Positions 17,869-64,000 are shown, counted from the stretch's first letter. The stretch: 64,000 bases of DNA from an uncultured Gemmatimonadales bacterium (GCA_963798915.1 CAWCVB010000002.1:192001-256000), one strand, 5' to 3'. Numbers and translations: made by a program. Notes: generated from the sequence alone by a model not told the origin.

Positions 17869-18731
17869 TCACCCGGCCGGCAGCGGCGCGCGTGCCGCAA
17901 TCAGGGTGACGTTGTCGGTGCCGCTCCGCGCTGAAGCGCCAGCTCGAGCAGCGACCGGCAGAGCTGCTCGGACGAGGTCATCTGCTCGATCTGCTGCTTG
18001 ATCTCGGCGTTACTCACATGCTTGGTGAGGCCATCGGTGGCCAGCAGGATGACGCAGCCGCGGGGAATCTCGATCCGGCTCACCACCGGCACCGCCTCGT
18101 CCCCGCCGATGGCGCTCGCGAGGATATGGCTGAAGGGTGACTTCTCGAGACGGTCGGCCGGCATGACGCCCTGGTCCACCAGCCCCTGGGCAATGGTCTG
18201 ATCGCGGGTCATCTGGGTGAGCTCGCCATCCCAGTACCGGTAGCAGCGGCTGTCGCCCACCTGGGTGACATACATCCACGGGAAGACCGCGACGGCGAGC
18301 GTCAACGTCGTGGCCATTCTGGCACCGGGGTCCCCCGCCTGCTTCTCCCGCACCGCCGCATGCGCCTCCAGCGCCGCAGCTGTCAACGCCTCGTAGAACT
18401 CCGTGTCGGACGCGGCGCCGGCGGCGTGGTAGGATCGCAGCGACGAAGCGACATAATGCGTGACGGTAGCCAGGGCGAGCCGGCTGGCCTCGCCGCCTCC
18501 TGCGCCGCTGCCAACACCATCAGCCACCAGCATGTAAGTGGCGATGCGTTCGCCGCGGAGCGGGAGGGCATCTGCATCCGGCAGGCTGGTGCCGTGCACC
18601 ACCACCTGGGGATGGACGGTGCACACCATGAAGTGGTCGTGGTTGGCCTTGCGGACCAGACCGACGTGCGTAATGCCGAACAGGTCCAGCTCCACATCCT
18701 TCGGCCGAACCCACTGCAACTCAGATGACAT
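17869..18731 (-). CDS. PP2C/PPM-family Ser/Thr phosphatase; apparent frameshift near 17924
   Basis: ATG 18731 after GGAGG; VADGVG, VGDSRCY, TRDQT, LATDGL. The final GTDNVTLI motif lies in the adjacent frame and ends at TGA 17869. Confidence 0.9.
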
Positions 18732-21480
18732 GGTCGCATCCTCCAGTCCGTACGGCATCCTGCGCTGACTCAGTCCTTCGTTCGGGGCCCTGCCGGGAAC
18801 GATGTGCTCCCTGAGGACGAGGTGCATCGGCGTCTCCCCTCGCCGCTGCGCGGATGCGCCGCATCAGCAGGAAGCCCTTGCCGTCGGGGGTGAGGGCGTA
18901 CTGGCGGGTGTCATCGTTCTGCCAGTACTCGTCGGGCGCCCCCCGCCAGACAACCGATCGGCCACTGGCCGGGAAGGAGCCGCCGGTGTCCATCGTGGCG
19001 CCGATGATCGCTCCCTGGCCGGCCTGACGATAGTAGAGCGTCCGGCCGTCACGGCTCCAGAGCGGTTCCTGGCCCCCGCCGTTGGAGACCTGCACCCGGC
19101 CATCACCGACTTTCGGGAACGGCCGCACGATGATCTCCTTGGCTGAGCCGATCTTCTCGGCATAGGCCACCCAGTGTCCATCCGGTGACACCGCCGGCGA
19201 CGTTTCCTCGGCCTCGGTGGTCGCGATCGGGATCGTCGTGGTGTCGCCGCCGGTGCGGCGGGCGTAGATGTCACCGTTGCCGATGGCCACGTCGTCGGTG
19301 CGGTACAGCAGCCACTGTCCGTCGGGACTGAAGCTGATCTCGTAGACGCCGCGCGGCTCGTCGACGAGGATCGACGGGCTGCCGGAGCCATCGGCGGCCT
19401 GCTGCCAGACGGCGGCATGGCTGGCCGAGTCGACCGAGACCCAGGCGAGCCGCCGGCCATCGGGCGACCACACAGCGCGGGAACTCTGCGTCCCCATCAT
19501 GTTGAACAGGGTCGCCGGTCCGTCGGGATACGGCTTGGTGTACAGGCCGTAGGAGATGCCGTCACCCTCGACCTGGGAGAGGAGCAGGCGATGTCCATCC
19601 GGGGAAAGTTCGATTCGGCTGTTGTTGGCGAAGGCGCCGGTCCAGGCGGAATCCACCACGCGGGTGCTCCCATCGAACCCGGCCGCCACGAGTTGCGTCC
19701 TGCTGGTGAAGGTCTCCCCACCGCCGACTCCCGTGACCATCACCCCGTCGACGCCGATGCTCACTTCCGGGCCGAGGGCCGTCACCGCGATGCCGCGGGC
19801 GACGAGCGTGCCTTCGCCGATCGTCCCCGCGGTCGCGTCGAAGCTGGCGAGGAAGAGGGTGCCATCGGGGAGGAGGTTGAGGATGCGATTGCCTCGCAGC
19901 GGCCACGCGCCAGCCGAGCCGGGGATGATCCGGCGTCTGGAGAGCGAGTCGAGCCGGACCAGGGAGATGACCGGGGTGGCACAGCCGCCGATGTCACAGG
20001 CCGAGATGACGACGGCGTTCTGGCCCGGCACGGGAGCGACGGAGGCGGCCCAGCCGAGTAGCTGGTCCGCCGTGGCGACGCGGCGCACCACCCCGCCGGT
20101 GTCCGGCACCGTGTAGAGGATGCTGCTCGATCCGCCCAGAAAGACGATGGTGCCGTTCTCGAGCCAGGCGCTCCGGATGGAGACTGGACCGAGTACGGCC
20201 GAATCCGAGAGGAGCCTGGAGGCGCCACCGGCGAGGGGGATCCGGCGCAGCTGGTGGCCGACCGTGAATGCGACGGAGCGTCCATCGGGCGAGATCCCCG
20301 GGCCCGACCCTCCCTGCGTGCCGGGAATCGGGCGTGCCTCGGCGTCACCGCGCGCCTTGAGCCAGAGCTGCCGGGTGCCGCCCACGGTGTCGCTGTAGAC
20401 GATCAGCTCGCCGTCGGCGCTCACGGCCAGCTGGTTCGCGACGAACCCGACGTCCGATTCCGACGGGGTGAGGTGGATCTGGTAGGTGAGCGGGCTGCCA
20501 CCGCCGGCATCGCCAGCGCCCTTGCGGGTCCAGCCCACGATCGCGACCACCGCCAGCACGGCGGCGAGGACGCCGAGCGCCAGGAGGGCACGGCGGTCGG
20601 TGCGGACGGCGCGCCGGGTACCGGTGGTGCGTCGGGTCACCGTGCCGGTTCCCTCGAGCGCCGCCGCGAACTCGGCGGCGGTGGCGAAGCGGTCGGCGGG
20701 CAGCTTGGCGAGGGCCGTGAGCACCGCATCCTCGACCGTCTCCGGGACCGTGTCACGGATGTTCGACGGGGGCGCCGGCTTCTCGGTCATCACCTTGGCG
20801 ACGATCGCCTGCGCGGAGGAGGCATTGAACGGGGGGTCGCCGGTGAGCATCTCGTAGAGCACGCATCCGAGGGCATAGATGTCGGTCCGCGCATCGAGGT
20901 TGCGCTCGCCCATGGCCTGCTCGGGGCTCATGTAGTGCGGCGTGCCGAGTGACATGCCGGTCTCGGTCATCCGGGTGCCGCCGTCGGAGCGGCTGGCCGC
21001 GAGGGCGATCCCGAAGTCGGCGACCAGGGCACGGCCGTCGTGCAGCAGGATGTTCTCGGGCTTGATGTCGCGATGGATCACGCCGTGGCGGTGGGCGTAG
21101 TCGAGCGCGCCGGCGATCTCGGTGGCGATCCGCACCGCGTCGCTGATCGGCAGCTGCGTCTCGCGGTCGAGGCGGTCGCGGAGCGATTCGCCCTCGATGA
21201 ACGGCATCACGTAGAACACGGTACCGTTGACGGTGCCGGAATCATGCAGCGGCAGGATGTGCGGGTGCTGCAGGTTGGCCGTGGTCTTGATCTCCGAGAG
21301 GAACCGCTCGGCACCGATCACGGCGGCGAGTTCCGGCCGCAGCACCTTGATGGCAACCTGGCGATCGTGCTTGAGGTCTTCGGCGAGGTACACCGTGGCC
21401 ATCCCGCCCGCGCCGAGCTCGCGCTCGATGGTGTAGCGGTCGGCAAGGGCGGCGGTGAGGCGCGCGAATGGGGCGGTCAT
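18721..21480 (-). CDS. K17: Ser/Thr kinase-TM-PD40/TolB beta-propeller (3' end uncertain, possible frameshift ~18840)
   Basis: GAGGMATVY, HRDIKPEN, DFG, RMTETGMSLGTPHYMSPEQ; TM helix; repeated SPDG blades. Confidence 0.92.
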   Translation of the reverse strand: MTAPFARLTAALADRYTIERELGAGGMATVYLAEDLKHDRQVAIKVLRPELAAVIGAERFLSEIKTTANLQHPHILPLHDSGTVNGTVFYVMPFIEGESLRDRLDRETQLPISDAVRIATEIAGALDYAHRHGVIHRDIKPENILLHDGRALVADFGIALAASRSDGGTRMTETGMSLGTPHYMSPEQAMGERNLDARTDIYALGCVLYEMLTGDPPFNASSAQAIVAKVMTEKPAPPSNIRDTVPETVEDAVLTALAKLPADRFATAAEFAAALEGTGTVTRRTTGTRRAVRTDRRALLALGVLAAVLAVVAIVGWTRKGAGDAGGGSPLTYQIHLTPSESDVGFVANQLAVSADGELIVYSDTVGGTRQLWLKARGDAEARPIPGTQGGSGPGISPDGRSVAFTVGHQLRRIPLAGGASRLLSDSAVLGPVSIRSAWLENGTIVFLGGSSSILYTVPDTGGVVRRVATADQLLGWAASVAPVPGQNAVVISACDIGGCATPVISLVRLDSLSRRRIIPGSAGAWPLRGNRILNLLPDGTLFLASFDATAGTIGEGTLVARGIAVTALGPEVSIGVDGVMVTGVGGGETFTSRTQLVAAGFDGSTRVVDSAWTGAFANNSRIELSPDGHRLLLSQVEGDGISYGLYTKPYPDGPATLFNMMGTQSSRAVWSPDGRRLAWVSVDSASHAAVWQQAADGSGSPSILVDEPRGVYEISFSPDGQWLLYRTDDVAIGNGDIYARRTGGDTTTIPIATTEAEETSPAVSPDGHWVAYAEKIGSAKEIIVRPFPKVGDGRVQVSNGGGQEPLWSRDGRTLYYRQAGQGAIIGATMDTGGSFPASGRSVVWRGAPDEYWQNDDTRQYALTPDGKGFLLMRRIRAAARGDADAPRPQGAHRSRQGPERRTESAQDAVRTGGCDHVI

Positions 21481-63834: not shown

Positions 63835-64000
63835 CGGGGATTCACCGGACCCAGGTACTTGTCAAGCCAGGCGAGCGTCTCGCCGATGAGGCGTGGGCGT
63901 GGTACATCGTGACCCCCCTCGTACACCACCCACTTCTTGTCGGCGGGTGCAGTACCCAGTCGCTCGTAGAAGGGACGCTGCGCAGTCTCCGTCGGGAAGA
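63831..64000 (-). CDS. 3' end of a protein with an alpha/beta-hydrolase-like C-terminus (5' part outside the window)
   Basis: Hand translation FPTETAQRPFYERLGTAPADKKWVVYEGGHDVPRPRLIGETLAWLDKYLGPVNPR*; GGH catalytic-His-like motif; ATGA overlap with K1. Confidence 0.7.
   Translation of the reverse strand, partial: FPTETAQRPFYERLGTAPADKKWVVYEGGHDVPRPRLIGETLAWLDKYLGPVNPR

Follow-up and report, generated by a model that had tools for sequence, protein, structure and literature searches.

A tandem array of 17 receptor-like Ser/Thr kinases in a Gemmatimonadales bacterium: old sensors and partly homogenised kinase modules

How can the kinase halves of a long series of neighbouring receptors stay alike while the sensor halves differ from gene to gene? 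This question is raised by a stretch of 64,000 nucleotides from an uncultured Gemmatimonadales bacterium (GCA_963798915.1 CAWCVB010000002.1:192001-256000; G+C content ~68%), hereafter called the window. On its minus strand, between positions 18721 and 63834, 17 consecutive PknB-like Hanks-type serine/threonine (Ser/Thr) kinase genes follow each other head to tail. An earlier note on this DNA had described a constant kinase, a hypervariable sensor and one terminal phosphatase. In the reading that we hold to be probable, the array is a lineage-specific tandem family of transmembrane (TM) receptor Ser/Thr kinases. Its sensors are old and distinct, its membership follows a birth-and-death pattern and its kinases are homogenised, while its members would sense in parallel in the periplasm with probably shared substrates and a PP2C-type phosphatase.

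The disparity between the two halves is large. Over all 136 pairs of array genes, mean identity is 66% (51-90) for the kinases and 21% (11-41) for the sensors, in agreement with the highly divergent outer domains first described.

Architecture of the array

The number of kinases was derived from Pfam, from a hidden Markov model (HMM) of the window's own kinases and from the gene junctions. Pfam Pkinase is matched over its full length in 15 of the 19 open reading frames (ORFs) scanned, at 145-182 bits against a cut-off of 31.7. A 16th ORF, 48050-49888, contains the Pkinase C-lobe only, and a 17th kinase is read in the frame 54136-56157 with its Pkinase domain intact; the longest ORF at this last locus, 54068-56176, was rejected as an out-of-frame artefact of the high G+C content. 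With the HMM, 17 places in the span are marked as kinase domains, one of which is in two pieces; two further kinases lie outside it, at 1536-2387 (plus strand) and 13385-14212 (minus strand). All 16 kinase-kinase junctions were inspected and no non-kinase gene stands between any of the 17. With 17 adjacent, co-oriented Pkinase genes in the window, the run far exceeds the five that we require of an array. The earlier claim of 17 co-oriented kinases without an unrelated gene between them is thereby confirmed, and 'at least 17' was the right wording.

Start codons were picked by their distance to the conserved N-terminal motif, which gives array kinases of 761-919 amino acids (aa). The genes are listed below in their order of reading; L numbers designate related loci found in the scan described in the next section.

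63831-64000, minus strand: 3' end of an ORF upstream of A, of which the window holds 55 codons; 4-bp overlap of its stop with the start of A
61174-63834, minus strand: kinase A, 886 aa; kinase, TM helix 302-320, double beta-propeller (PD40) sensor
58526-61177, minus strand: kinase B, 883 aa; kinase, TM helix, divergent propeller sensor without Pfam match at 1e-3
56154-58529, minus strand: kinase C, 791 aa; kinase, TM helix, alpha/beta domain plus TPR sensor
53190-56157, minus strand: kinase D; kinase and TM helix intact, helical, weakly TPR-like sensor, frame break near 54240
50557-53193, minus strand: kinase E, 878 aa; PD40 propeller sensor
48050-50469, minus strand: kinase F; TPR-type sensor, frame break in the activation loop near 49890
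45763-48048, minus strand: kinase G, 761 aa; TPR-type sensor, no predicted TM helix at the threshold used
43073-45766, minus strand: kinase H, 897 aa; PD40 propeller sensor
40390-43017, minus strand: kinase I, 875 aa; PD40 propeller sensor
37609-40245, minus strand: kinase J, 878 aa; most divergent propeller-type sensor (weak PD40), divergent kinase, long branch in both trees
34879-37527, minus strand: kinase K, 882 aa; PD40 propeller sensor with orthologues in L004, L062 and L053, conversion-like tract shared with M
32162-34882, minus strand: kinase L, 906 aa; PD40 propeller sensor
29568-32165, minus strand: kinase M, 865 aa; PD40 propeller sensor
26803-29433, minus strand: kinase N, 876 aa; PD40 propeller sensor, sister of the L007_11117 sensor (SH-aLRT 100)
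24149-26806, minus strand: kinase O, 885 aa; double beta-propeller sensor (modelled)
21477-24152, minus strand: kinase P, 891 aa; PD40 propeller sensor
18721-21480, minus strand: kinase Q, 919 aa; PD40 propeller sensor, last kinase of the run
17869-18731, minus strand: PP2C-type Ser/Thr phosphatase without TM helix; first 11 bp shared with the end of Q, reading frame shifted close to the 3' end

The genes are tightly packed. At 10 of the 16 junctions, start and stop overlap by 4 bp (ATGA/GTGA); at one the spacing is 1 bp, and at the other five the genes are 55-144 bp apart. These spacings suggest that the run consists of some six translationally coupled blocks: upstream ORF-A-B-C-D-E, F-G-H, I, J, K-L-M and N-O-P-Q-PP2C. 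Scans of positions 16000-55999 with promoter and terminator consensus patterns returned nothing above shuffle expectation and nothing in the five intergenic gaps. The gap between E and F (50470-50556, minus strand) holds an 8-nucleotide (nt) unit, CGTACCGC-like, three times in tandem.

The kinase domain is complete and conserved, as had been claimed. All 16 intact domains share an invariant Gly loop, K43, E61, H134-R135-D136, K138, N141 and D153-F154-G155, and in F the same catalytic motifs are readable across its two pieces. Both the Pkinase scores, above the Pfam gathering score, and the catalytic residues place these proteins among the Hanks-type Ser/Thr kinases. The activation loop is PknB-like, with two threonines before G-T-P-x-Y-M-S-P-E-Q; the form RMTETG(M/L)SLGTP, said earlier to be shared by most members, is exact in 11 of the 17. 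The best solved relative of the kinase profile is PknB of Mycobacterium tuberculosis (E 2e-79). Nevertheless, the seven kinases scanned whole reach 275-326 bits with NF033483 (Stk1/PknB PASTA), through their kinase part only, against a cut-off of 450. The Pfam scan of the array ORFs gave no match to PASTA repeats, and no NCBIfam equivalog cut-off is reached by the array kinases.

A single membrane helix is predicted at about residue 290-330 in 16 of the 17 genes and is followed by an outer domain of ~440-680 aa, which bears out the receptor-like topology proposed at first. The outer domains fall into two classes. Thirteen are double beta-propellers related to TolB, and four (C, D, F and G) combine an alpha/beta domain with TPR helices. 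PD40 repeats exceed the Pfam cut-off in 12 sensors. The sensor of B counts as the 13th propeller by its alignment to PD40-type sensors (23-28% identity over ~500 aa). TPR matches are found in C, F and G, and weak ones in D. They are not assigned to TolB itself: A scores 114 bits and B 33.5 bits with TIGR02800 (cut-off 343), the modelled propeller is double where TolB has an N-terminal domain and a single propeller, and there are no Tol-Pal neighbours.

One sensor of each class was modelled with AlphaFold2, that of O from an alignment of 52 sequences and that of C from 11. The O model (pLDDT 93.6, pTM 0.89) is all-beta, with 47 strands and a C-terminal helix. Its Foldseek matches are double propellers, namely 2ymu, Aip1 (1nr0), Pwp2/Utp and LRP6 E1E2, with E-values of 1e-16 to 1e-12 and low TM scores of ~0.3, as is to be expected should the two propellers be set at a different angle to each other. 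In sequence, the O sensor comes closest, among solved proteins, to TolB (E 1.3e-35) and S9-peptidase propellers. The C model (pLDDT 88.2) comprises an alpha/beta domain at 12-136, a disordered linker and TPR-like helices at 157-474. Consensus TPRs and the TPRs of OGT give its lowest E-values, while its best superposition is with the periplasmic domain of CadC (3lya, 3ly7; target-normalised TM 0.62-0.64, rmsd 4.9 A, ~316 columns). The C model thus has the alpha/beta and helical subdomains of a CadC-type sensor fold, whereas the ToxR-like winged-helix output of CadC is absent, the N-terminus of the array genes being Pkinase.

Evolution of the sensors and of the kinases

Relatives were collected in a scan with one genome per species, which gave more than 651 matching stretches; from the best 80 of these, 71 loci were kept with 10-kb flanks. 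Between sensors of the window, identity at four-fold synonymous sites of shared residues has a median of 39.5%, against a random expectation of 39.4%. Because synonymous sites are at the random level, the sensors are old, saturated paralogues and not fast-changing ones.

Sensors of individual genes have orthologues in other genomes. The N sensor is 65% identical to that of L007_11117, the O sensor 69% to one in L029 and 80% to that of protein P0002, and the Q sensor 72-95% to that of the fourth kinase of L029. Further counterparts are found for the second half of D at the 5' end of L029 (62%), for the B sensor in L019 (L019_11120, 54%) and for the K sensor in L004 and L062 (50-51%). The sensor tree recovers these orthogroups with SH-aLRT values of 97-100; in the same tree the A sensor clusters with those of O, H, L038 and L066. 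Computed separately as the earlier note had proposed, dN/dS between orthologues is 0.18-0.41 for the sensors and 0.07-0.29 for the kinases, rough values given that dS is saturated (>=1). The sensors are under purifying selection, and no sign of diversifying selection appears at the level of the whole domain. 'Hypervariable' is therefore not the right word for them.

Comparison of array content among relatives, another step suggested beforehand, does reveal differences. In L029 the order is D-like, k1, k2, O-like, Q-like. The sensors of k1 and k2 have no close counterpart in the window, and the clade of the k2 sensor is present in five other loci. Conversely, in the window ten genes intervene between D and O, and one, P, between O and Q. 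Array membership thus differs between relatives, which is a birth-and-death pattern.

The kinases tell another story. The kinase tree pairs A with B (99), E with H (96) and K with M (95), and likewise joins kinases within L006, L018, L027 and L029. The sensor alignment rejects A and B (p-AU 5e-32, approximately unbiased (AU) test) and K and M (1.4e-5) as sister pairs. In seven of eight comparisons, a kinase is nearer to a paralogue of its own array than to the kinase of its sensor's orthologue. The likeness is also local. E and H, with kinases 90% and sensors 23% identical, share 84-95% of their DNA over residues 21-240 and then ~45%; K and M reach 97-98% DNA identity in two overlapping 40-codon windows. 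Among same-array pairs with at least 75% aa identity, 8 of 53 have a 40-site synonymous window above the maximum of 551 cross-genome pairs, K-M (37/40) and E-H (35/40) being two of the eight. Synonymous identity is higher for same-array than for cross-genome pairs in all six aa-identity bins, for example 66.9% against 55.6%.

There is thus good support for local gene conversion or recombination. Such exchange keeps the kinase modules alike within the array, at least partly, with a boundary near the end of the kinase domain. C and D share an exact match of 77 nt near the 5' end (within the first ~115 nt), their kinase proteins being only 52% identical, and this match is possibly a short conversion tract.

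The family to which these genes belong is specific to Gemmatimonadota and very large. Of the 71 kept loci, 69 are titled as Gemmatimonadota lineages, Longimicrobiales included. Of the other two, one is a 2.9-kb contig binned as Ilumatobacteraceae and one is titled only 'bacterium'. Identity reaches 82% at best among the related loci, which contain 93 full-length relatives with a median of 883 aa. In a protein collection, 5829 of 8000 scored candidates match the O sensor at E <= 1e-5; 107 of the 120 matches listed carry Pkinase, and the other 13 are shorter, several of them marked partial. Some members on contigs below 3 kb (L002; P0022, P0084) are labelled Ilumatobacteraceae, Planctomycetota and Micromonosporaceae, and are probably mis-binned fragments of Gemmatimonadota. 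The window does not encode protein P0013, whose sensor has 58% identity to the O sensor. Since P0013 and O are both recorded on a contig of 784,222 bp, more family members lie elsewhere on the source contig.

Multiple copies are common in this lineage. Loci of at least 12 kb (n = 34) hold one family kinase in 15 cases, at least two in 19 and at least three in 10, counts which are lower bounds as the flanks are limited to 10 kb. Three to six co-oriented copies occur in 7 of the 34. The earlier note had called for a search for runs of five or more adjacent kinases, and these are found in L019 (5 in 16.6 kb) and L029 (6 in 20.8 kb). It is therefore wrong, for this lineage, that such kinases occur 'usually singly'. 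The 17-gene run is the largest seen and is not unique in kind.

Three single frame breaks occur in these 46 kb, in PP2C (17869-17960), F (~49890) and D (~54240). D is split into the ORFs 54136-56157 and 53190-54386, and F into 49777-50469 and 48050-49888, the two pieces of F covering positions 3-274 of the Pkinase model. In PP2C, the last conserved motif, G-x-D-N-x-T, lies in another frame; the frame-corrected end is 17869, and the motif is present in the homologues of L007, L061 and L064. Because the breaks in D and F stand beside short G runs, and because kinase hits are also split in four other loci from metagenome-assembled genomes (MAGs; L003, L024, L029 and L054), consensus indel errors are more likely than pseudogenes.

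One could still read the breaks in two of 17 kinases and in PP2C as decay, the array being a neutral pile-up of tandem copies of which many are turning into pseudogenes. We regard this as very improbable. Catalytic residues are kept in all 17 genes, sensor orthologues have dN/dS well below 1, and the breaks fit indel errors as just described. An assembly artefact, in which repeats had produced a chimera or inflated the copy number, is still harder to credit and seems to us extremely improbable. The kinase modules are indeed 63-87% identical in DNA, with exact runs of up to 77 nt, and 17 of the 71 related loci are on contigs below 5 kb. However, each copy has a sensor sequence of its own, the exact repeats are far shorter than reads, independent MAGs display the same organisation (including the partial synteny of L029), and protein O is recorded on the long contig mentioned above. 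The more general concern that such kinase modules might break short-read assemblies fits both the related loci on short contigs and the three frameshifts in this stretch.

Proposed signalling role and its alternatives

A PP2C does follow the last kinase, as had been noted: PP2C_2 is matched at 52.4 bits (cut-off 24). With 137.6 bits it stays below the Stp1 equivalog cut-off of 230 bits. Homologues of this phosphatase (44-62% identity) adjoin family kinases in L007, L061, L064 and L009, that is in 4 of the 34 long loci. Partner genes were sought among 388 non-kinase ORFs in loci of at least 8 kb, with 13 cluster representatives scanned with Pfam. The families that recur in at least three loci are MacB/FtsX permeases (six loci), PP2C (three) and HlyD-like proteins (three).

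According to the reading that we prefer, four steps would make up signalling. Each sensor would bind a distinct periplasmic ligand, as its domain family suggests. Ligand binding would lead to PknB-style autophosphorylation of the activation loop. The nearly identical catalytic module would then phosphorylate substrates that are probably shared by all receptors, and PP2C would reset the shared phospho-signalling. The formula of many sensors with one shared chemistry, put forward at the outset, appears reasonable in view of the conserved kinases, the divergent sensors and the linked PP2C.

Several points weigh against this reading. In AU tests on the kinase alignment, three sensor-defined groups are not rejected (p 0.34, 0.093 and 0.53), so the incongruence between the trees is formal from the sensor side only; moreover, the groups were chosen after the trees had been seen. 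Some of the synonymous excess belongs to the kinase domain as such: the family-specific random expectation of synonymous identity is 46.7% for kinase domains, with cross-genome orthologues at 50-66%. As this expectation replaces one of 39%, the global synonymous excess is smaller. How far apart two array genes lie has no significant bearing on their identity (kinase rho -0.16, p 0.12; sensor rho ~0), so that neither simple duplication of neighbours nor neighbour-biased conversion is shown. The roughness of the dN/dS values has been mentioned. PP2C and two kinases are frameshifted as assembled, and G is without a predicted TM helix. In the partner search there is no conserved partner near family members beyond PP2C, and no FHA protein. 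Lastly, we infer the functional half of the proposal from domain families.

A related view, which we put forward tentatively, gives recombination a role in the signalling itself. Here the array would be a co-expressed repertoire whose kinases are kept interchangeable, with shared substrates and a shared PP2C and possibly with cross-phosphorylation or heterodimers. Its ancient sensors, of at least two and perhaps three unrelated folds, would be gained and lost between species.

The kinship with TolB and PknB has also another possible meaning. The propellers could dock on envelope parts, as TolB does in Tol-Pal, and the kinases could exert a PknB-like control of growth, division or envelope repair, with copies that are largely redundant or condition-specific. 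TolB is the nearest solved relative of the sensors by sequence, PknB that of the kinases, and the family is present across the phylum, Longimicrobiales included. We nevertheless find such a housekeeping role unlikely. Thirteen propellers at 16-41% pairwise identity, each conserved across genomes, speak for distinct specificities and not for redundancy; the TolB equivalog cut-off is missed widely (114 against 343 bits), and array content varies between relatives.

That same variation in content could be taken for an arms race, with the kinases acting as sensors of anti-phage defence or inter-microbial conflict, as proposed for PD-T4-6, MADS6 and PglW. The PADLOC models for PD-T4-6 and mad6 match at up to 322 bits, and weak NCBIfam matches to MADS6 and PglW exist. 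Yet in all four kinases tested the PADLOC matches are confined to the generic kinase domain (~4-310), except that PDLC04041 extends to residue 406 in two of them, and the NCBIfam scores lie below the cut-offs (MAD6 182 against 460 bits, PglW 95 against 990). Furthermore, these periplasmic sensors are old and evolve under purifying selection, defence genes of other families do not recur in the neighbourhood, and no methylase or BREX genes were seen among the neighbours in the window. The phage signals evoked by the earlier note thus receive no specific support, and we consider a defence role decidedly improbable.

Flanks, precedents and meaning

Upstream of A, the 55 residues encoded at the window's edge have no Pfam match. 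All 55 align, with 58% identity (E 4e-19), to the C-terminus of L023_6406p, a protein of 965 aa. This L023 kinase (6406-9300) consists of Pkinase, TM helix, FGE-sulfatase domain and alpha/beta hydrolase (PETase/DLH-like), a third kind of outer part. An 18th receptor kinase, with a sensor of a third type and an alpha/beta-hydrolase C-terminus, may therefore end in the upstream ORF, in which case the run would continue past the window. A need then not be the first kinase of the run.

On the other side, directly downstream of PP2C, lies one further gene:

16110-17801, minus strand: amidase-signature enzyme (Pfam Amidase 319 bits; NF006006 742.7 bits, cut-off 534)

Its likely N-terminus bears a twin-arginine-like motif, which suggests export. 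Beyond it, two more kinases are seen. A TPR-repeat kinase without predicted TM helix (11978-14398, minus strand) is co-oriented with the array, but PP2C, the amidase and a HYR/PxKF-domain protein (14361-15821) lie between the two. A Hanks kinase of a different architecture, with Pkinase and TPR_12/TPR_10 (1245-3947, plus strand), lies outside the array on the opposite strand. At 7216-11371 (minus strand), a CheB methylesterase-CheR methyltransferase fusion (8582-11371) stands beside a PAS hybrid histidine kinase with receiver (7216-8886); this is a separate signalling module. In other genomes, MacB/FtsX permease genes occur near family kinases in L014, L034, L045, L060, L066 and L070, and this recurrence is probably that of just another expanded family in these genomes.

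To what extent is such an array new? In the parts compared of a published account of Planctomycetota (PMC11032199), 'Ca. Uabimicrobium amorphum' has 525 kinases, with an expansion of membrane kinases carrying periplasmic WD40 or TPR repeats. Kinase-domain trees from planctomycetes contain species-specific clades, which the same parts put down to duplication and/or recombination (PMC11032199). Cytoplasmic Pkinase, membrane span, periplasmic propeller or TPR repeats and lineage-specific expansion are common to those kinases and to the array. The array differs in phylum, by its double propellers of PD40/TolB type in place of WD40 and by its 17 genes in an uninterrupted, translationally coupled run; neither such an array nor a domain-resolved analysis of conversion is described in the compared parts of that account (PMC11032199). 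Myxobacteria possess many Hanks kinases, some of them adjacent and read as tandem duplications, with TPR and WD40 associations (Perez et al. 2008, as cited in the compared parts of PMC11032199). The array is distinct from the myxobacterial kinome in phylum and in sensor families.

With PknB and PknD of M. tuberculosis the array shares the kinase-TM-extracellular sensor topology and the two activation-loop threonines. PknD itself has a beta-propeller sensor. The array kinases have no PASTA repeats and score below the cut-offs (PknB_PASTA at most 326 against 450 bits, PknD at most 176 against 839), and the mycobacterial genes do not stand in a long array. To TolB, the link is a homologous PD40 beta-propeller; in the array, two propellers in tandem are fused to a kinase via a membrane helix, and no Tol-Pal genes are nearby. 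The C-type model superposes on the periplasmic sensor of E. coli CadC, and G gives weak matches to the CadC and HilA families. Unlike CadC, the C-type protein has a Hanks kinase output and a longer, TPR-like helical part; the sequence identity between them is 12-13%.

The earlier comparison with plants deserves mention as well. Clustered plant receptor-like kinases, like the array, are tandem receptors with a conserved kinase and divergent ectodomains, subject to birth and death. The array differs from them in its unrelated sensor folds, its independent origin and its sensors without sign of diversifying selection over the whole domain.

A full-text literature search returned no description of kinase arrays in Gemmatimonadota. 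The impression that the array is undescribed thus holds for this phylum and has to be limited by what is known of tandem duplication and expansion of receptor kinases in Myxobacteria and Planctomycetota (PMC11032199, in the parts compared). Architecture and mode of expansion are known from other phyla, and the array is an unusually large case of a known multiplication of sensors. What is new is the occurrence in this phylum, a PD40 double-propeller family, a run so long and so tightly coupled, and homogenisation restricted to one domain.

Gemmatimonadota are abundant in soil, have few cultured members and have been almost unstudied as to their signalling. As this locus shows, they depend on receptor Ser/Thr kinases that form a very large family and stand in long, operon-like arrays, a style of signalling better known from Myxobacteria and Planctomycetota. 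Arrays of this kind probably fragment short-read assemblies, and kinase counts in MAGs of the phylum are likely underestimates. The sensors that were modelled are compact ectodomains with a confidently predicted fold and could be produced as proteins to screen for ligands. Saturated sensors and near-identical kinase tracts within single genes offer a natural case to study why a module is homogenised while its inputs diversify. If the kinases are indeed kept interchangeable, the array would be a bacterial counterpart of the clustered plant receptor-kinase loci, with concerted evolution confined to the signalling half.

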